From Lama guanicoe (Eukaryota), in the NCBI GenBank assembly GCA_013239625.1, contig MU053629.1:2073567-2137566 (forward strand): a DNA stretch of 64,000 nucleotides, in the 5' to 3' direction. The translations under genes and the position numbers were made by a program. How positions within the stretch are numbered: position 1 is the stretch's first letter; each line of letters opens with the position of its first letter. Shown piece by piece: positions 13,091 to 63,560 of the stretch. The notes under the pieces are model-generated. The model saw only the letters and a program-made list of their open reading frames with translations, was not told the DNA's origin and made no database searches.

Positions 13091-14599
13091 GTCTAAAGGG
13101 GCAGGAAACCAAAACTTAAAAGATTCTTTTAATGTATAAGACATCAATTGCTTGAAAATTTTTAGTGGGTCTTCTAGACTTGAGAAATTTCTCTGTCTAA
13201 AAATTGGAGTGCTCTGTAGAAATGTTTACTTTCCTTTGTTCCCTATATTTGCAGTCTAGGCTTCTCCAATGATAGTCATACTCTTCAATAGGAAATGACT
13301 ACTCAAGTCTTAACCCTTAATTAAGTCACACCTAAGTCTAAGACACTAAACGTCTCTCTTTCTCTGCCTGCAAGTAGCTGAGTCTTCACCTGTAACATCA
13401 TCCAGTACAGATTAGAGAGGTTTGCTGTCACCTGGGTTCAGTTTTGTCCTTGTACTGTCTGAGGACAAGCTGAATATTGGTGAACAAATGGAAGATTATT
13501 CTTCCTAGGCCAGACAGGCTTAGTATTCTTTAGCCATTACCCCCTGACACACACACATACCCCTTTTGTATGTGTATATGGAGGTGGAGAGTAAAGGGAT
13601 TTTATTATCTGGCTCTATCCTCAAGTCACATACTATACTATCTTGAGTGGCACTGTAGAAGGATGCCCTTTTCCTAAAAAGGGAAGAGAGGAAAGAGAAA
13701 TACTGCAGAGCTAAGATGGTCAAGGACACAGGAAAGACATAATTGAGGCTAAACACTGGGGAGCCTTGAGGATTGAGATAAATTTGTTTGCTCTGGAAGG
13801 AGGTGGAAGTTTTAGGGAGGAGGAGGTGAAGAGTATGATATTTCACAAGAGGTCGGTGGGAAAGTTCACTTAAACTAGGATTGAATGCCTACCGTGTGCT
13901 GTGCAATCAGATGAATGGCAGATAAGATTAAAAAGTTACAGTCATTAGAATGGTGGGTTGGAAAAGGACGGAATAGGGGACTTAAGATAATAAAAAGCAA
14001 CAAGATTTGGTGATAAAGGATGGTTTGGTGGAAAGGGTTTAGAAGGATTAGCAATGGGTACTTTGAAGAGGAAACCTAGTGATAATCCTAAAAAAAAAAA
14101 AAGAAACTGGAGAACAAAGGATAAAAATTTAGGGGGTTGATAACTTCGCTGAACCAAGGGATAAAATGGATGAAGCCACCAAGAGCTGTGCTTGCTCTTC
14201 TGTTCTTTGTGGATGTCCACGTTCAGACCCCTAACCGCCCTTTCCTCTCCCCACGGTTGGACACCTACAGAATTGGTGTCTTCCGTGTTTAAGATATGAT
14301 ACTTCCCCAGAGACCTCTCTGCGAGGAAGTCTGGTCCAGCGAGAGTTCTTTGCACGAGGAGAGAGCGTTAGGTTCGAGCTCTCCAACCCAGGTCTCCTCG
14401 AGTTTATCTCTGTTTTAACCGGCTCGCCGGGTTTTCCAGCATTCCCAGAGCTACGAGTCTCTAATCCGGGCTCCGTGTGACCGTGCATTCCGAGACCCAG
14501 GATTTGGCTCCTTCATCCAGGTTCCGGGTTTCCCTTGTGCTCTACTGCTCCAGACTCCACACTAGCCCGGAATCCAGATCCGAGGGCCCGGTAGTCCAG

Positions 14600-14869
14600 T
14601 GTCCGGGTCTTCCGGGCGGCCCTGGTTGTCCCGGATCGCGGCGGCGGCGGCGGTGGCGGCGGCTGAGGGACCCGCGGCCCCGGACACAGCGGCACCGGCC
14701 ACGCGGGGCGGAGCGGCGCGAGGAGGGGGCGGAGAGCCGGAGCCGAGGCGGGGTGGGGTGGGGGGGAGGGGCCGCGGGAACGGATGGCGGCCTGGGCCCC
14801 GTAGCAGTGGCGGCTCTACGGCCCGGGGCCCAGGCGGCGGAGGTGGCGGCTCCCGGGACCGGCCGCGCG
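14600..14869 (+). other. ZNF609: ZNF609 non-coding exon 1 (5' end approximate)
   Basis: GC-rich leader ending in a consensus donor GCG|GTGAGT (GT at 14870) inside the CpG island, upstream of the first coding exon. The TSS cannot be fixed from sequence. Confidence 0.75.
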
Positions 14870-14906
14870 GTGAGTCCGGAGCTTTGTGTGGAGCCGGGGC
14901 TGGGGG

Positions 14907-14956
14907 NNNNNNNNNNNNNNNNNNNNNNNNNNNNNNNNNNNNNNNNNNNNNNNNNN
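14907..14956. other. Assembly gap (50 N) flanked by G runs
   Basis: Run of N in the GC-rich start of intron 1; true length unknown. Confidence 1.
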
Positions 14957-17900
14957 GGGGGGGTCGTTGCGTGGGTGGGGGAGGGGGCGTCGAGGGGCGC
15001 GGGGTGAAGTTCAAAGCGTGGCCGGGGCCGGTTCAGGCTGAGGTTAGGGGTGCCCGAGAGGGGATGGAGGTCTCGCCAGGTTGTGGGGACAGGCCAGAGA
15101 GTTTCAGAGGCGAGTCTGGGTATCTTGAGGGGGCCCAGGGCGAGTGGGGCTAGTCAGGGAGTTAGTGGGGTGCAGAGCGAAGGGCTGGGAGCAGGACGTG
15201 TGCGCGGCCCAGGAGGTGGGGAGCAAGGTGGCTGGGAGTGTGCAGTAAGTAGGTTGTGGGTGTGTGCTCCTTCCAGTCTTCAGGTCACATTTACTCCTGT
15301 CCTTTTCTTCAAGATGGAGGGATCCCTGGGCCTGGCCCTTAACTGCTATCCTTGTACCCCCGGGAGGGTTGGTGACCCTGTCCTGTTTGGAAAACCCATG
15401 CTGCCCTCTTTTCCCTTTATGTGTAATTACGGTTGGATCATCTCTGTGCTTTGCTCAGATTCTCCTTCCTCCCTCTGGGGTTGAGGAGGAGGAGACACAT
15501 CTGACCAATTAATGTGTGTTTGTGAAACAGGCAGCAGCAAACAGTCATTTCAGCTTCTAGGAATTAGGCTCACACAGGGTGGAGAGAGATCAGACCCCTT
15601 CAGGGGGAATATTTCTGAACAAATCACAGATGATTAAATTCTCAAAGAAACAGCTTTCTACCTAAATGAGAGTGAGAAAGATGGGGTAGAAAGCCTGTCT
15701 GTTTCCAGCCATGTGTCCAGAGCCCCAGGGGTTGAGGAGAGTCCCCAAACCCCCACAGGCCTCTCTTTTCTGTATTAGGCTTTGCTCTGCAGCCTTGAGT
15801 TAATTTCACCCCTGCTGCTTTGTCTTGGGGGAGGGAGTGCTGGTTTAGGCTGTTGTGAGGAGATGACTGTTCTGCTGCCACACACAATAGTCGTGTCATT
15901 TTATCGGGAGTGCTACCCCAGGGCTGAGAACTGCTGCTGCAGAGATAAACCGGTCCCTCTCACCCGCCTATTGTGTACACAGTGAAGGTCATAGGTTCAA
16001 GTCTTGTCTGAGAGCTTTGGATATGCTCCATCTCCCAGGCTCCTCAGTGCCATTTTCTTCCTTTTCCAGACTGGGGCTTGCCATTGGAGGAGGCCAGACA
16101 GAAAGGCTCTTCTTTTTGAGTGAGGAACAATGCAGAGCTCATTGGCACACATTTTTCAGAAGAATAGGGAATGCCAGCCATGTTGTGCCTGCCTCTTTGG
16201 CTAGCCTGTACTAAGTTGTGGAGGGATGGTGGCTGGGAGACTCAACCCTGATGTTTGTGTCAGATCTTTAAGGAAGACGACTCCAAGTGGAGGGTTTTAC
16301 TCTTGTTTGAGCCAACATATTTAATTCTCATTCTTATAGAGGTAGGACACTCATCCAAGGATTTTTGTTTTATTTGTTTAGGAATACCACTAAAAACCTG
16401 TGCAGGGTTAAGATGGGGAGTCAGGAACCAGGTACCTTTTTAATGGTGACTTCCTGGTCAGAATAATTGCATAAGAAAAAAGCCACAGAATTTGCCTATC
16501 TGGGTAAGGGTTGTGGAAACAAAACAACTTTCCTTTTAATCTTTGATTCTGATGAAAGGAGGTGACTTGCTCATTGTGCAGAAAGTCCATATGTGTTTCT
16601 GTATTAGGGGGAAATTTGCCAGAGAGATGAATATTAAAAAAATCATTTGAGGTCTTAGAGGTTGTTAATGAGGGAAGAATGAGGACAAGCTAGAAGGAAC
16701 CCTATCCTTGTATATATCGCATAGAAGTTCCCAGATGGTATTTAGGTACTATAAATTGGGTAAAAAGTTTTTTGGGGCTGGAAATGAGGTTTCCATTTAG
16801 GACATTAAAGAAGACTTAAAAAGAGATGAGAAATCAAACTTATTGTGAGAGGGCAGTGGTACACAGTATACACTGTACGCGATAGCCAACCATTTCCTGT
16901 AGGATATTGTTGAAGAAGAACTTTAGCCTTTAGTTGTACTAAAGGTCTTTCCAAGGTTCTGAGTCTGACTGTGTTGCCACCTTTATCTCTTTATTTCAGT
17001 GAGTTTCTTAAAAATGATGCCTTGCCACTTAGGTGTTGGGCTTTGTTGGGAGGGAACAGGTTGTTCTGACCTTCATATTTCTTGTTGACAGGACTGTCTC
17101 AAGGTCTTACTAGAGGTGTTATCTGTCTTTAGACTGTTTCCAACTCTTATGTCCTAGGTCTCTGAGTGAAGCCTCAGCTAAATGAGTCCAGAGCTTTTTG
17201 CTCTTGGGCTTTTGGCATTCATTTCTGAATCCTGTCAGGTGACAGTGAAGGCAGAAACCTCAGATTAAATTTGCCCTGATTGGATTTAGTGGTTTCAGAG
17301 TTGGGCCCTTGCCACGAGTAGTCCTATGAATCTTCCGACTGTGACCATCTTTCAGAGAGCACTTTGGATTTTTCCTCCAGCTTCTTGTTAGAAAATGTTT
17401 CCTTGTGAGAGGTCTAGATAGCTGGGCAGATTAGTGCTTATTTTGTGAGGATATGGAAGCATAATTTTGGCTCCTGGTAGTAATTACATTGCAATTAGCA
17501 TATAGCAACTAAATGACTGGAACAGGATAATTTGTTGAGGGGTTTACTGATTGCTCTGTCAAGTAGAAGTGCCACTCCTTTCTTATTTCACTCAGAGCAC
17601 CAATGCCTGGGCTCAGCCATGGAGACTTAAGTGCAGGAACGATGTGTGGTCTCCAGAAGTTCTCGCTCTGTTCTCACTCTCGTCACTGCCAGGTACCATA
17701 GCACCTTCTAGTGCCACTTTCTCCTGCTCCAAAGGTAGCTAAGCAATTGTTAGTTCCCTTCTGGAAAACTAGTCATGGATGGGAATACTGCCAGACAGAT
17801 GGGGCCACTCTGAGATGAGGCAGCCGTATGTTGTGTGGCAAGTTTTCTTTTAAGCAGCTTAATTCTTCTGATTTTTAAAATTTATTTTCCTTTAGAAAAA

Positions 17901-35225: not shown

Positions 35226-35997
35226 TTCTCGGGTATTTTAGTTAGAAGTGGGGAAGATTATATTAAATTCTGCTATTTAGACATAATTTGAAACCTAGAG
35301 TTTAGTAAGTCTGGTTTAACTTAACATAAGCTGATTGGTTGATTCTTTTCTGAGAATTGTCTCTTCTAATTTCAGTTTTTGCCCCCGATCCTGATACTGT
35401 TTTTTCCCCTGTTCTGTTTGCTTTTCTCTTTTTTTCTTGCTTACCCACAATGAAACCTCCTCCGCCATCACACCCCCTCACCCCAGGCAACAGTGAAATG
35501 ACAAGGAATCTGTATTACTGTTAGTAAGGACAGGCCCTGTTAGTAGAAGGCTTCCCTTGGTCCAATGTTCTGAGTTCCTGATAATTTAAGAACAAGCAAG
35601 GAGGAAAGAAATGTGTGTAAACTTGTGCTAGAACTTGAATCCGGGATGTGCCTGCCAGGGCCTGTATTGACTGAGGGAGGCTTGCCAGCTGGCAGTGGTA
35701 GTAGAAATCAGCCTCCTGGGAATGGGAAACTAACTCTAGAGGATTCCTAGTTAAGACTTACCACAGAATCTATGAGCACTTGGAAATACCGTGCTCTCCC
35801 CTGGGGAGACGGAGTGGGAGTCACCTTTTCCCTTCGTCCAATGTGACTTGGTTAGAAATACAACTGAACCTGTTTGTCTTGTCCATTGTGATGTGATAGC
35901 CCCATAGGAAGGATCTGTTTTGTGTGGGAGTTTATTTCAGGCTGTCTCTTTGCCTGTATTGTTTCCTTTAACAGCTCTTTAAATTTTCTTTTTCCAG

Positions 35998-36871
35998 CAA
36001 TGATGTTGTCCACTGGGCATGTACTGACCAATGTGGCAGGTCTGAGAACATAGCTGAAGCTGAAAATAGGAAAGCTGGGGGCAAGGAAGAGCCTTGAATC
36101 TTGAGGTGGGACGTTGACTCTAAGATGTCCTTGAGCAGTGGAGCCTCCGGAGGGAAAGGAGTGGATGCAAACCCGGTTGAGACATACGACAGTGGGGATG
36201 AATGGGACATTGGAGTAGGGAATCTCATCATTGACCTGGACGCCGATCTGGAAAAGGACCAGCAGAAACTGGAAATGTCAGGCTCAAAGGAGGTGGGGAT
36301 ACCAGCTCCCAATGCTGTGGCCACACTACCAGACAACATCAAGTTTGTGACCCCAGTGCCAGGTCCTCAAGGGAAGGAAGGCAAATCAAAATCCAAAAGG
36401 AATAAGAGTGGCAAAGACACTAGCAAACCCACTCCAGGGACGTCCCTGTTCACTCCAAGTGAGGGGGCATCTAGCAAGAAAGAGGTGCAGGGACGCTCAG
36501 GAGATGGTGCCAATGCAGGAAGCCTGGTTGCTGCTATTGCTCCCAAGGGCTCAGAGAAGGCGACTAAGGCATCCCGCAGTGTAGCCGGCTCCAAAAAGGA
36601 GAAGGAGAACAGCTCAACTAAGAGCAAGAAGGAGAGAAGCGAAGGAGTGGGGACTTGTTCAGAAAAGGATCCTGGGGTCCTCCAGCCAGTGCCGTTGGGA
36701 GGACGGGGTGGTCAGTATGATGGAAGTGCAGGGGTGGATACAGGAGCTGTGGAGCCACTTGGGAGTATAGCTATTGAGCCTGGGGCAGCGCTCAATCCTT
36801 TGGGAGCTAAACCGGAGCCAGAGGAAGGGGAGAATGAGTGTCGCCCGCTAAAGAAAGTCAAGTCTGAAAAG
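35998..36871 (+). ncRNA. ZNF609: circ-ZNF609 orthologue: 874-nt single-exon circular RNA (ZNF609 exon 2) with a 753-nt ORF
   Basis: Acceptor aaattttctttttccag|CAATGA at 35998, donor after 36871, length 874 nt. Back-splice GAAAAG|CAATGA gives 249 codons + Gln + TGA = 753 nt. These equal the values I recall for human circ-ZNF609. Expression in this species is inferred, not shown. Confidence 0.85.
36125..36871 (+). CDS. ZNF609: ZNF609 first coding exon (exon 2), residues 1-249; CDS continues beyond the window
   Basis: MSLSSGASGGKGVDANPVETYDSGDEWDIGVGNLIIDLDADLEKDQQKLEM...RPLKKVKSEK is the ZNF609 N-terminus. AUG context AAGATGT, in-frame upstream stop TGA 36095-36097, phase-0 donor AAG|gtaaga at 36872. 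Confidence 0.97.
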
Positions 36872-45089: not shown

Positions 45090-45913
45090 TTTAAAAAACG
45101 GAGGTATCGTTGACATAACATATTAGTTTCAGGTGTACAACATAATGATTCAGTATTTGTGTATGTTGCAATATAATCACTTCAGTAAGTCCAGTTAACA
45201 TCCTCATTGTTACAAAATTTTTTTCTCTTGTGATGAAAATTTTTAAGAGTTACTTTCCTGTGTACTTTCAAATATGCAACACAGTATTATCCATAGTCAC
45301 CATGCTATACAATGCAGTCCCATGATCTATTCATTTTGTAATTGGAAATTTGTACCTTTTGACCACCTTCACCCATTTGATCCACCTCTCTACCCTCTAC
45401 CTCAGGAAACCACCGGTCTGTTCTCAGTGTCCATGAGCTCAGGTTTTTGTTTGTCTATTTGTTTTTAGATTCCACATATAAGTGAGACCATATGGTATTT
45501 ATCTTTTTCTGCCTGGCTTATTTCACTTAGCATAATGCCCTCAAGGTCTATTCATGTGGTCTCAAATGGCAAGATTTCATTCTTTTTATGGTTGAATAAT
45601 ATTCCTCTGTGTGTGTATATATACAGACACACCACATTTTCTTTATTCATCCACTGATGGACATTCAGGTTGTTTCCATGCCTTGGCTATTGTAAATAAT
45701 GCTGTGGTGAACGTGGGGGTACATATGTCTTTCAAATTAGTATTGTTGTTTTCTTTGGATAAATATCCAGAATTAGAATTACTAGATCCTATGGTAGTTC
45801 TGTTTTCAATTTTTTGAGGAATCTCCAAACTGTTTTCTATAGTGGCTGCATCAATTAACCAACAGTACATAAGGGTTCCCTTTTCTCCACATCCTTGTCA
45901 ACTCTTGTGGGGG

Positions 45914-49500: not shown

Positions 49501-50788
49501 GTCACTTCCCAACTCTAATCAACCCTTTAGAACTGAGCAGATAGGTGTCCTCAAATGTCACACACCCAGGAAAAGACTGACTGTTGTTTAGAGATGAAGT
49601 TAGTTAGGGCTTTCCCTAGCTTCTGCTGGATCAGTGACCTGAGGTGGCATTCAGAGCAAAGTCTGGGAAGATAATGCCTGAATGACATTTTTATATCTGA
49701 CTAAAATTTTCAGATTTTTCATTTGTTTTTATTGCTAGTCACATTTCATCTTCCATTTCATATATAATAACCAAAAAGCAGGAGGAAAGGGCAGGCAAAT
49801 CCCACTTTAATTGTTCCCATTCCCTTGTCCTCACAGAGCTTTGATATTGGTAAAAGCTTGTTGAAACGAACTGGGAGCAGCCTGAGAGGTATGTTTGGAA
49901 GGTTGTGGCAGGAAAGAGCTAGTAGGGTTGGACTTTGAGATGGTAGGGTGGGGAATGAGTGCTTTAAATATAAACTTTGATGGTTTTTATTTTTAACAAC
50001 AAGTAAATCTTAGTACTTTCCCTGTTACCTGTTTACTTGCTCCTGGCAAGCAAAACAGCAAATGGCTGGTTTATCACCCTTTAGGGATGGTTTTGGCCAG
50101 GAATATGAGATTAGAGTAGTTTAGGAGTTGATAGCAAGAGATGATACCTTTGACCTAAATAACACCTCCCAAGAAACAAACTTTTAAAGGAAACTTAGAT
50201 TTTGGTGTGGTGCTTACTTAGTAAAAATTATCTTTTCTTAAATGTTCTTGTATTGATCTTATCTTAGGGGAAAGATTACATTTATCCTGCTTATCTTATA
50301 TTCTTCTACATCTTTCAAAACCATTTCCAAAGTTCAGCTTGCAGAGTGCTGAACAGTAAGTCTAGTTGGAGAGACAGAATGGAATCAAATGACCACTTGT
50401 GTATCAGGGTCAGGGTCAGAGAAAATATCCGTGAAGAAGTTTGAGTAAACATCTGAAGAATGAATAGTAGTTAATTTGCCAGAGAGAGTTAAATGAACGA
50501 ACAACCAAGTGGAGATGTCCTTTAAGGTCTGGAGGTTATGAGAGAGAACTGGAAATCTAAAGATGTATTCACATGAACAGATAAATGGTAATTGATGCCA
50601 TAAAGGTGGATGAGCTTACCCAGGGAGAATGTGTCTGTTGAATGAAACAAAAAGAAGGGGAGCTAGGATAGATCCCTGAGGAGCACCAAGAATGTAGCTA
50701 ACTGAGATGGCATGTTTGGCAGTGCTTCCCGTGTAAAGGAGAGCATATAAAAGTACAACTGGGCACACATGTCTACAAAAACATTTTA

Positions 50789-55289: not shown

Positions 55290-57260
55290 AAATTAAGATA
55301 GTTACATTTATTTTTTCAAGTGCACAACTCAGTGCTTTTATATTCACAAAGTTTTTGTACAACCATCACTGTTACTTAATCCCAAAATATTTTTGTCACC
55401 TCCTCATTAGCAGTCACACACACACACACACACACTACCAGTCTCCACCCCCACTACTGTCACCCACTAATCTACTTCCTGTCTGTGGATTTGCCTATTC
55501 TGTACATTTCATGTAGATGGATCCGCACAATATGTGTCTGGCTCCTTTTACCTAGCATAATGTTTTCAGGGTTCATCCATGTTGTAACATGTATCAGTAC
55601 TTCATTCTGTTTTATTGCGAAATAATGTTCCATTGTATGGATATACTGCATTTGTTTATCCGTTCATTATTGATAGATGTTTGGGTTTTCACTTTTGGCT
55701 ATTATTAATAACGTTGCTATGAACATTCATGTACAAGTTTTTGGGTAGGCATATATTCATTTCTCTTGGGAATAGGCCAATGAACAGAATTGCTGGGTCA
55801 TATAATAGCTTAATGCTTAACTTTTAGAGAAACTGTCGAACTTTTTCCTAAAGCAGCTGTACCATTTTCCACTCCTACCAGCAGTGTGTGAAGATTCCCA
55901 TGTCTCCACATCCTTGCCAGCACTTGTGATTATCCATTTTTTGATAGTAACTATCCTGGTGAATGTGAAGTGGTATCTCATTGTGGTTTTGATTTGCATT
56001 TTCCTAATGGCTAGTGATTTTGAACATCATTTCATGTGCTTATTGACCATTTGTATATCTTTGGAAATATGTCTATTCACATTCTTTGCCTATATTTTAA
56101 CTGAGTTATTTGTCTTTTTATTGTTGAGTCTTTATTTATTCCAGATACTAGTCTAGCCCCTTAACAGATATATGACTGACAAAATTTTCTCCCATTTCTG
56201 TGGACTATCTGTTCACTTCCTTAACAGTGTTCTTTGAAGCACAGAAGTTTTAAATTTTGAGGAAGTTCAATTCATCTTTAGTTCAATTTCACCTTAGTTG
56301 CTTGTGCTTTTGGTGTCATATCTTAAAAAAAAAAGTCATGAAAATTTACATTTATAGTTTCTTCTAAGAGTTTTATGGTTTTAGTTTTTATATTTAGATC
56401 TTTGATCCATTTTGAGTTAATTTTTATACATGTATGAGGTAGAGGTCCAACTTCATTTTTTTTACATGTGGATATCCAATTTTCCCTGTACCACTTGTTG
56501 AAGAAGCTGTTCTTTTCCCATTGGATTGCCTTGACACCCTTGTAGAAAATAAATTGACCATAAATGTATGGGTTTTTACCTGGGCTCTTTGTTCTGTTCC
56601 ACTAATCTATATGTATATTCTTATGCCAGTATTGCCATCTTGATTACTTTAGCTTTGTAGTAAGTTTTGAAATCAGAAATCGTGAGTTTTCTAGTTTGTT
56701 CTACTTTTCGAGAGTTTTTGCATTCTGAATTCCTTGCATTAAGATACGAATTTTAGGATCAGCTTGTTGATTTCTGGGAAAGAAAAAAAAAGCCAGCTAG
56801 GATTTTGACAGAGATTGCATTGAATCTGTCACATAATTTAGAGAGTTTTGCAGTCTTAACAGTTTTAAGTTTTCCAATTCATGAAGATGGGATCTCTTTC
56901 CATCTATTTAGATCTTTAATTTCTTTCAGTGATGTTTTGTGGTTTTCAAAGTACAAGTCTTGTACTTTTGTTAAATTTATTCCTAAGTATTTTATTTTAG
57001 ATTTTAAGTAGAGTTGTTTTCTCAATTTCATATTTGGGTTATTTATTGCTGTGTATAGAAATACAACTGATTTGTATTTATTGATCTTGTATCTTGCATT
57101 TTTGATGAGCTCATTTATTAACTCTAATAGTTTTTGTGCATTTTTAAGGATTTTCTATATATAAGATTATGTCATCTGCAAATAGAAATACTTTAATTTC
57201 CTTTCTAAAATGGATGTCTCTTTTTTTCCTTGCCAATTGTCTTGGCCATAACCTCATTTA
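55290..57260 (-). mobile_element. Old L1M (L1MB/MC-like) 3' fragment, about 2 kb, with (CA)10 at 55415-55434
   Basis: Antisense L1 3'UTR and degraded ORF2; minus ORF 55817-55999 [21 protein letters not shown] is the L1 ORF2 C-terminal motif. Confidence 0.9.
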
Positions 57261-60874: not shown

Positions 60875-63560
60875 GTTTTTAATTGACATTTTTATTGAGG
60901 TAATTGTAGAGTCACATGCAGTTATAAGAAATAATACAAAGATCTATTGTACCCTTCACCCAGTTTTCCCCAATAGTAACATTTTACAAAACTATCATAT
61001 AATATCAAGATATTGACATTAATACAATCTACCAGTCTTATTCAGATTTGCCTGGTCTTATGGGTGTGTGTTTGGTGGGGTGGGTTGCTGGGCACTATTG
61101 TACTTGTTTCTATACAGTCTTATCACATGTGTAGGTTTGTTTTTCCATCACCACTATCAAGATTCTTACCTTTCCATCACCACAATTAGCATAATTTTCT
61201 GAAGATTCATCCAGGTTGTTGTGTTTATCAGTAGTTCATTCCTATTAATTGCTGAATTTGTATGATATGGGCATGTATATGTCATAGTTTGTTTAACCAG
61301 TCAGCTGTTGAAGGACATTTGGACTGTTTTCAGTTTTGGGCTATTATGAAAAAAGTTGCTATGAACATTCATATACAGGCTTTTCTGTAAACATAAGTTT
61401 TCATTTCTCTGGGCGAAATGCCCAGGAGTGCAATTGCTGGATCATATAATAATTGTGTATTTAGTGTTTTAAGAAACTGCCAATTTTTTTTTTTCCAGAT
61501 TGGAAGTACCATTTTACATTCTTACCAGCAGTGAAGGGGAGATTCTTTTTTTCCCCCATCTTTGCCAGTATTTAGTATTATCACTATTTTTACTTTAGCC
61601 ATTCTGTTAGTTTGTGATATTTTGTTGTGGTTTTGATTTACATTTCCCTACTGCCTAACAGTGTTGACTTTTCTCATGTATTTGTCATCAGTATATCCTC
61701 TTTAGTGAAATGTCTCTGTATGTCTTTTGCCCATTTTATAATTGTTTGTTTACTGTTGTTTTTAGAGCTCTTTATATATTTTAGATCCAGTCTTTTGTGA
61801 GATATATGATTGCAAATATTTTCTCTCAGTCTGTAGCTTATCTTTTTAATACTCTCTATATGAGCTTTCACAGAGCAAATATTTTTAGTTTTGGTGAGGT
61901 CCACTTATCAATTTTTCTTTTTATAGATCATGTGTGTTTTAAGGAAATTCTAATTTTTTTAATAAAGTATAGTCAATTTACACTGTTGTATTAATTTCTA
62001 GTGTACAGCATAATAGTGACTCATTTGTACTTACGTATATATTCCTTTTCATATTCTTTTTCATTATAGGCAATAACGAATTTGTGTTTTTTCTGTATAT
62101 GTATATATATATATATATTTATTGAAGTATAGTCAGTTTACAATGTTGTGTCAACATTACAAGGTACTGAATATAGTTCTCTGTGCTATGCAGTAGGACC
62201 TTGTTGTTTATCTATTTTCTATATAGTAGTTAGTATCTATAAATCCCTAATTCCCAATTTATCCCTCCCCACCCCCTCTCCCCACTGGTAAGCATAAGTT
62301 TGTTTTCTATGTTTGTGAGTCTGTCTCTGTTTGTTTGTTTGTTTTTTAAGATTCCACAAATAAGTGATATCATACATTATTTTTCTTTCTCTTTCTGGCT
62401 TACTTCACTTAGTATGACGATCTCCAGGTCCATCTGTTGCTGCAAATGGCATTTTTCATGGCTGAGTAGTATTCCATTGTGTGTGGGTATGTGTGTATGT
62501 GTATCACAACTTCTTTATCCCATCATCTGTTGATGGGTATTTAGGTTGCTTCCATGTCTTGGCTATTGTAAATATTGCTGCTATGAACAATATAATCTAC
62601 ATGTATTATAGATCATGTTTTTGTTGTCAAGTCCTAAGAATCTTTGCCTAGCCCTAGATCCTGAAGATTTTCTCCTATGTTTCTTCTAAAAGTTTTATAG
62701 TTTAATGTTTTATACTTAAGCCTGTGATCTATTCTGAGTTAATTCTTATACAGAGTGTGAGGTTTAGGTTGCAGTTTATTTTGTGTGTGTGCGCCTATGG
62801 ATGTCAGTTGCCCTAGCACTATTTTTGAAAAGGTTATTCTTCCTTCATTGAATTACTTTTGCACCTTGGTCAAAAATCATTTGAGCATGCTTGTATACGT
62901 CTATTTCTGGGTTCTCTGCTCTGTTGCATTGATCTCTGCATCTACCCTTCTGCCAGTTAGTACCACATTGTCTTGTTTACTGTATAAGCCTTAATGTAGG
63001 GTGAGTGATTCCTCTCACTTTATTTTTCTTTGTCAAGATTGTTTTAGCTTTGGCTTATCTGTATCTGCAACAAACCTTGCTCAGATTTTGATAGGAATTG
63101 CACTAACTTTAGCTTATCTATATCTATAACAGACCTTTGTAGGATTTTGTTAGGAATTGCACTAAGGGGAGAATTGACATCTGTCTTTTAAGTTTAGTTA
63201 AGTGTTTTTGGTCTTATAGAAGTTTATATAATGAAATTGGTAGGTTTTCTTTTTTTAAAAAGACTCCTGAATTTCATGTCTAATTTAAATAGAACTTCCT
63301 CTCCCCAAGATTATAACACTATTAACCTGTATTTTTTTCTTTACTCGAAGCATTTTGGTTTTAAAATTAGTTTTTTAAACCATCTGGTATTTATTTTGGT
63401 ATCCTGTAGAAATCTAATATTCTTTTTTTTTTTTGAACCCAATTGGAAAGTCAATTGCCTCATCATTTACTGATTATTATTCATAGTTTTTCATTGATTT
63501 GAGATGCCATCTTTGTCATAACCTAAATTGTTATATATATTTGAGTTTGTTTCTGGGCTG
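60875..63560 (-). mobile_element. Old L1M fragment with nested younger L1 insertions (about 61934-62605)
   Basis: Antisense L1 3' end ttttattgaggtaattgtagagtcacatgcagttataagaaataataca. The nested element is flanked by TTATAGATCATGT at 61921-61933 and 62606-62618. Confidence 0.85.

Follow-up and report, generated by a model that had tools for sequence, protein, structure and literature searches.

Genetic Organization of the ZNF609 Exon 2 Locus

The 64,000-nt stretch of Lama guanicoe DNA analyzed here (hereafter, the window) contains the second exon of ZNF609, which is the first coding exon of the gene and would constitute the whole of the predicted circ-ZNF609 (35998–36871, + strand; 874 nt, with canonical acceptor and donor). 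Both splice sites are strong: the acceptor reads ...TTTTCTTTTTCCAG/CAATGA (slashes mark exon boundaries), of the AG/C type, with the exon starting at position 35998, and the donor reads GAAAAG/GTAAGA, with the last base of the exon at 36871. The main ATG lies at 36125, exon position 128, and opens 747 nt free of stop codons up to a phase-0 donor; these 249 codons (36125–36871, +) encode the N-terminus of ZNF609 and are common to the linear mRNA and to the predicted circle. In the unspliced genomic sequence the same frame continues into the intron (KSEK-VRGG..., 283 aa). The sole other in-frame ATG (36275–36277, +), corresponding to Met51, would yield a product of 200 aa.

Joining the end of the exon to its own start by means of a script resulted in ...KVKSEK-Q-stop, that is, an ORF of 753 nt for a product of 250 aa, closed by a Gln codon and a stop codon (CAA TGA, 35998–36003, +) that fall in this frame only after back-splicing. 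The predicted circle keeps 121 nt untranslated (36004–36124, +), which are part of the 5′ UTR of the linear mRNA, and it lacks an endless frame because 874 mod 3 equals 1. A first-pass annotation of this DNA had given the same exon length, AUG, number of codons, donor phase and initial CAA TGA, all of them correct on recount, and the script reproduced the junction product that it had proposed, including the length of the ORF and of the protein, the untranslated remainder and the 200-aa product from Met51. Additionally, a short upstream ORF (uORF) of 17 codons (MMLSTGHVLTNVAGLRT-stop; 36000–36053, +) starts at exon positions 3 and 6 with two ATGs that overlap the TGA (CAATGATG), so that its AUGs overlap the UGA of the circle (CAAUGAUG); 71 nt separate its end from the main AUG at 36125. 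On the opposite strand, an ORF of 123 aa (35968–36339, −) overlaps the start of the exon and is probably a chance frame facing the coding region.

The 249 deduced residues are 98% identical, with 100% coverage, to the ZNF609 proteins of other mammals (clusters with a 1328-aa protein from Equus and a 1411-aa protein from a primate), and identity of this N-terminus to fish ZNF609 drops to about 50%. In a tblastn comparison, residues 1–250 of P0003 map onto this exon, which is single-copy and matches at 100% in the animal's own assembly; the exons encoding residues 249–1391 follow downstream on the same contig, and a ZNF608-like paralogue is found on another contig. As judged from its identity to full-length mammalian ZNF609, the exon is real and conserved beyond chance, and the host gene is, on sequence grounds, the ZNF609 orthologue. 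No family was recovered from Pfam with the 249 aa or from Rfam over the whole window. A circRNA-derived or processed pseudogene, i.e., a DNA fossil of the circle, was ruled out since the exon is single-copy in its own genome.

Both flanking introns are very long. The first 27 kb of intron 2 occupy the remainder of the window (36872–64000, +) out of a total of 108,136 nt, and exon 3 starts 81 kb past the window, at an acceptor (...CTCTGCAG/ATGGAGTC, reading MESPVSTP) situated 108,136 nt past the exon 2 donor. A CpG island (14250–15250; GC 0.63–0.69, CpG o/e 0.84–0.98) is the probable site of the ZNF609 promoter and exon 1, implying that intron 1 is likely about 21 kb long. An assembly gap of 50 N lies in the middle of this island (14907–14956), and exon 1 may be incomplete in the assembly. 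Intron 2 also contains a candidate alternative exon of 53 nt (49837–49889, +), with acceptor ...TCCTCACAG/AGC and donor GAGAG/GTATGT, which reads SFDIGKSLLKRTGSSLR in phase with exon 2 and, given its length, would shift the frame if included before exon 3; it can be compared with P0251, from the RNA assembly of another mammal, which links ...KSEK to SSDTGKSLLK.

The Layout Matches That of the Published Circ-ZNF609

The human circ-ZNF609 is described as consisting of the second exon, with an ORF of 753 nt whose stop lies 3 nt past the junction (PMC5387670), and a review lists it as 874 nt long, with the start at 128 and the stop at 6 (PMC9353708); likewise, Ho-Xuan et al. (2020) mention one extra residue past the junction and two in-frame AUGs (PMC7544230). 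Compared with the circle from human and mouse (Legnini et al., 2017), that predicted from L. guanicoe corresponds to the same gene and exon, with the same 874 nt, AUG at 128 and 753-nt ORF, and is also alike in the stop ending at exon position 6, the single extra residue and the second in-frame AUG. The sequence layout is identical throughout, and the coding organization of circ-ZNF609 that had been proposed from the sequence is intact, at the same coordinates as in the published human circle (PMC5387670; PMC9353708). As the values 874, 753, 128 and 6 equal the published human numbers, this is a known feature in one more mammal: the architecture has been known since 2017 and is carried here by an orthologue. 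Among the titles and the opening lines of abstracts retrieved from the literature on circRNAs, ZNF609 and camel, we found no report of a camelid circ-ZNF609.

Proteins Bearing the Junction Occur in Diverse Mammals

We sorted 153 proteins of similar length from a public protein collection (P0121–P0273) by the residues that follow the motif KKVKSEK. Most of them (89) continue into the intron (V...) and three into exon 3 (ME...), 28 lack the motif and 16 have other tails; the remaining 17 end in KKVKSEK-Q followed by a stop and comprise 14 distinct variants. All 17 originate from RNA-assembly contigs, known by their length only, the longest length being 904 nt. Logan assembles with k = 31, so that we take 904 nt to be 874 + 30, as expected of a closed cycle of 874 nt, bearing in mind that linear repetition of exon 2 or trans-splicing could leave the same cycle in an assembly graph as a circle would.

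The 14 variants fall in three clusters at 90% identity, whose named members are bat, pangolin, pig, hamster and muntjac, and differ from the L. guanicoe product by 3 to 21 residues. No variant is identical to this 250-aa product (for the nearest cluster, the listing covered 15 of 19 members), which has private residues S116, T147 and T165 with respect to the nearest junction-bearing variant. Residue 204 is Met in the rodent-like variants and Val in L. guanicoe; this Met204 could correspond to the third in-frame AUG that Ho-Xuan et al. mention. Neither genomic DNA nor the linear mRNA can give rise to a K-Q-stop end, so that, on this indirect evidence, the junction is widespread in mammals together with its Q-stop and the exon length of 874 nt, which is what these sequences add to the published layout.

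The Stop Codon Past the Junction Is Not More Than Expected by Chance

The first-pass annotation had emphasized that the stop codon is created only by back-splicing. This is true of the sequence, although it overstates how special the stop is. Past the junction, the frame of the circle contains stops at codons 2, 10, 16, 20, 22 and 24, i.e., six in the 42 codons of the UTR, and the chance of a stop in random sequence is about 9% within two codons, 1 − (61/64)^2, and about 87% within 42 codons. The occurrence of a stop after the junction is not more than expected by chance and, with the next stop eight codons further on, loss of the TGA would add only eight residues. An early stop is, in fact, generic, as the ORF of any first coding exon, once circularized, comes to a stop within the 5′ UTR. 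A search for orthologous DNA in a metagenome scan retrieved only two fish-like ZNF609 loci, L001 and L002, with 49–53% identity, and none was found in a scan of genome contigs; from their predicted acceptors, with the tails read by eye, the hypothetical back-splice stop would be codon 14 in L001 and codon 15 in L002.

The ZNF608-like paralogue from the same genome (L004) behaves similarly, with a hypothetical back-splice stop at codon 7 from a predicted acceptor. It resembles ZNF609 in its N-terminal domain (55% identity over residues 7–135), in having a phase-0 donor after ...KTEK and in the stop shortly past the hypothetical back-splice. Conversely, the exon predicted for it measures 1107 nt (mod 3 = 0), six residues (EKVDLD) precede the stop and, with the acceptor as predicted, there is no ATG at the start of the exon. 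We know of no evidence that this paralogue forms a circle.

The exact Q-stop is kept in 14 of the 14 distinct mammalian variants. Besides selection for termination, the conservation of CAATGA has at least two other explanations, namely a conserved UTR and the ATGATG starts of the uORF. It is conceivable, if tentatively so, that CAATGA was kept for the linear mRNA, through uORF control of ZNF609 translation and the context of the splice site, and not for the circle. In agreement with this, the TGA lies within ATGATG, the tandem starts of the uORF adjoining the acceptor, and in both fish-like loci, otherwise dissimilar in this region, an ORF of 11–12 codons opens with an ATG at exon position 7 (read by eye). 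Legnini et al. also describe the part of the UTR inside the circle as more conserved than other parts of the ZNF609 UTR (PMC5387670). However, the paralogue does without an ATG at its predicted exon start, and the uORFs discussed in the available text of Ho-Xuan et al. derive from the FLAG tag (PMC7544230). A role of CAATGA in the linear mRNA would, in any case, be compatible with the formation of the circle as a mainly regulatory RNA, which is the explanation that we prefer (see below).

The overlap of the uORF with the junction stop also allows for a far more speculative scheme, in which a ribosome ending at the junction UGA would re-initiate on CAAUGAUG, run through the uORF, re-initiate at AUG 36125 and cycle on the circle. 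If true, such cycling would need neither a cap nor an IRES after the first loading, and would account for the invariance of the Q-stop as well as for the ancient AUG with which exon 2 begins, and which the fish-like loci share; we consider it most improbable.

The Flanking Introns Lack Useful Bracketing Inverted Repeats

Comparison of the 36 kb of the window upstream of the exon with the 27 kb downstream gave no reverse-complementary hits at E ≤ 1e-5. Within 5 kb of the exon there were no inverted pairs above chance, the best being 18 nt at 89% identity (E = 0.89), and a second comparison agreed with this. When the whole of intron 1 was compared with all 108 kb of intron 2, only two weak inverted hits appeared (121 nt, 74%; 65 nt, 82%), located 10.5 kb upstream and 69–87 kb downstream; there is also a microsatellite pair, with (TG)n 770 nt upstream and (CA)n 18.5 kb downstream. 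Core motifs for QKI near the splice sites (one per side) and m6A-type motifs were at background density. The first-pass annotation had placed this circle in a context without Alu elements, a statement that can be broadened, since there are no useful bracketing inverted repeats of any kind.

A repeat family is present in the window as four direct copies with 66–72% identity (873–1356, 45506–45895, 55533–56001 and 61183–61463), whose common orientation makes pairing across the exon impossible. The two introns differ in their content of self-inverted blastn hits at E ≤ 1e-5, with none in intron 1 (21 kb) and 49 in intron 2 (108 kb); interspersed repeats are strikingly scarce in intron 1, which may be rich in regulatory sequence.

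Circularization of exons driven by inverted repeats (Alu/SINE) was reportedly described by Jeck et al. in 2013. The locus from L. guanicoe is like those cases in having a single exon between very long introns, and unlike them in that the reverse-complementary bracketing pair is absent. From introns with nothing to bridge the splice sites it could be argued that, in this animal, the exon is not circularized or is so at noise level, as would fit the 18-nt best match close to the exon, the weakness and distance of the two whole-intron hits and the background density of QKI cores. This is nonetheless very unlikely, given that junction-closed 874-nt contigs are found for 14 variants in clusters with bat, pangolin, pig, hamster and muntjac, and that L. 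guanicoe has kept the exon and its two splice sites unaltered, between long introns (about 21 and 108 kb). As those lineages are devoid of shared primate Alus, the circle appears to be independent of any lineage-specific repeat. In this respect, circZNF609 is described as requiring m6A for its efficient biogenesis and as being bound by YTHDC1 (PMC10076346, citing primary papers).

Conflicting Evidence for Translation of the Circle

Published results on the translation of circ-ZNF609 are conflicting. Legnini et al. report its association with heavy polysomes, tagged protein from the two AUGs and a splicing-dependent IRES-like activity of the circle UTR (PMC5387670). Conversely, Ho-Xuan et al. 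(2020) found neither endogenous protein nor an IRES nor any dependence on METTL3; constructs unable to form the circle still yielded the proteins, and the apparent translation was traced to linear by-products that the plasmids generated by trans-splicing (PMC7544230). We looked for a structured IRES in the 121-nt UTR from L. guanicoe and found no sign of one, its predicted fold having z = +0.85, with 158 of 200 shuffled sequences at least as stable.

The fullest interpretation of the locus would be that the circle is formed and that its cap-independent translation, starting at AUG 36125 and at AUG 36275, yields zinc-finger-less ZNF609 isoforms of 250 and 200 aa with functions of their own, CAA-UGA being a selected terminator. 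It is consistent with the intact ORF, with the polysome loading, tagged protein and IRES-like activity reported by Legnini et al., and with the retention of the Q-stop and of the 874-nt length in all 14 mammalian variants. However, the ORF of the circle is the start of the linear CDS and its conservation is thus uninformative about the circle; likewise, the proximity of the next stop means that selection on the UGA need not be invoked, and the distance to the stop differs in the fish-like loci and in the paralogue. Together with the results of Ho-Xuan et al. and with a UTR fold no better than that of shuffled sequences, these considerations make this interpretation unlikely as a whole. Considered separately, it is unlikely that the circle gives rise to a meaningful endogenous protein, and the existence of a zinc-finger-less isoform derived from it is weakly indicated.

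Other proteins of the collection consist of exon 2 plus tails of 3–9 residues (STS, SLS, NSGLIAAIS; P0123, P0272, P0242 and P0241, from other mammals), and two of the short products of this kind come from annotated genomes (pangolin and bat). A search of intron 2 of L. guanicoe for an exon reading STS-stop or SLS-stop with a pyrimidine tract gave no match. As linear transcripts of other mammals join KSEK to STS, SLS, SSDTGKSLLK or NSGLIAAIS, a nearly identical zinc-finger-less protein could arise from linear RNA.

Interpretation and Significance

Our preferred explanation, which we consider probable as a whole, is that this locus represents the orthologous exon 2 of ZNF609, that the circle is made from it and acts mainly as a regulatory RNA, and that back-splicing here is independent of repeats. 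In the linear mRNA, exon 2 provides residues 1–249 along with a portion of the 5′ UTR and is joined by a phase-0 splice to exon 3; other mammals also back-splice this 874-nt exon, from the donor to its own acceptor, into circ-ZNF609. Since L. guanicoe retains all that is required of the sequence, namely the two splice sites, the length of 874 nt, the AUG at position 128 and the initial CAA-UGA (positions 1–6), the circle is very probably made there too. Its ORF would close one codon past the junction, with a predicted product of 250 aa, and the circle would function chiefly as a regulatory RNA, translated at a low level if at all; the published circle, which is m6A-dependent, is said to bind CKAP5 mRNA and to control proliferation (PMC10076346, citing primary papers). 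The Q-stop would be a by-product of a stop-rich 5′ UTR bearing a uORF, with selection as a terminator not being required. In the absence of inverted repeats, back-splicing here cannot rely on intronic pairing, and would more likely result from the very long flanking introns and from exon-bound factors, such as those of the m6A/YTHDC1 route.

Several observations run against parts of this explanation. None of the 14 junction variants equals the product from L. guanicoe, with its private residues, and the assembly-graph cycles are compatible with repetition of exon 2 or trans-splicing. That the circle is mainly non-coding is our judgement, in view of the polysome loading and tagged protein reported by Legnini et al. 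(PMC5387670), and the presence of the exact Q-stop in 14 of 14 variants is also the outcome that selection for a terminator would produce. As for the first-pass annotation, its interpretation holds for the identity of the exon, the layout of circ-ZNF609 and the lack of Alu elements, but not for the special character it gave to the stop created by back-splicing.

Taken alone, the finding is of small importance, as it corresponds to a well-studied circular-RNA locus that is intact in one more mammal. Nevertheless, the public 874-nt ZNF609 cycles, with at least 14 mammalian variants, constitute a cheap comparative set with which to study selection on the junction codons. Likewise, L. guanicoe retains the exon with no bracketing inverted repeats over 21 and 108 kb of intron and, if the circle were confirmed in this animal, the locus would lend itself naturally to testing whether back-splicing can proceed independently of repeats.
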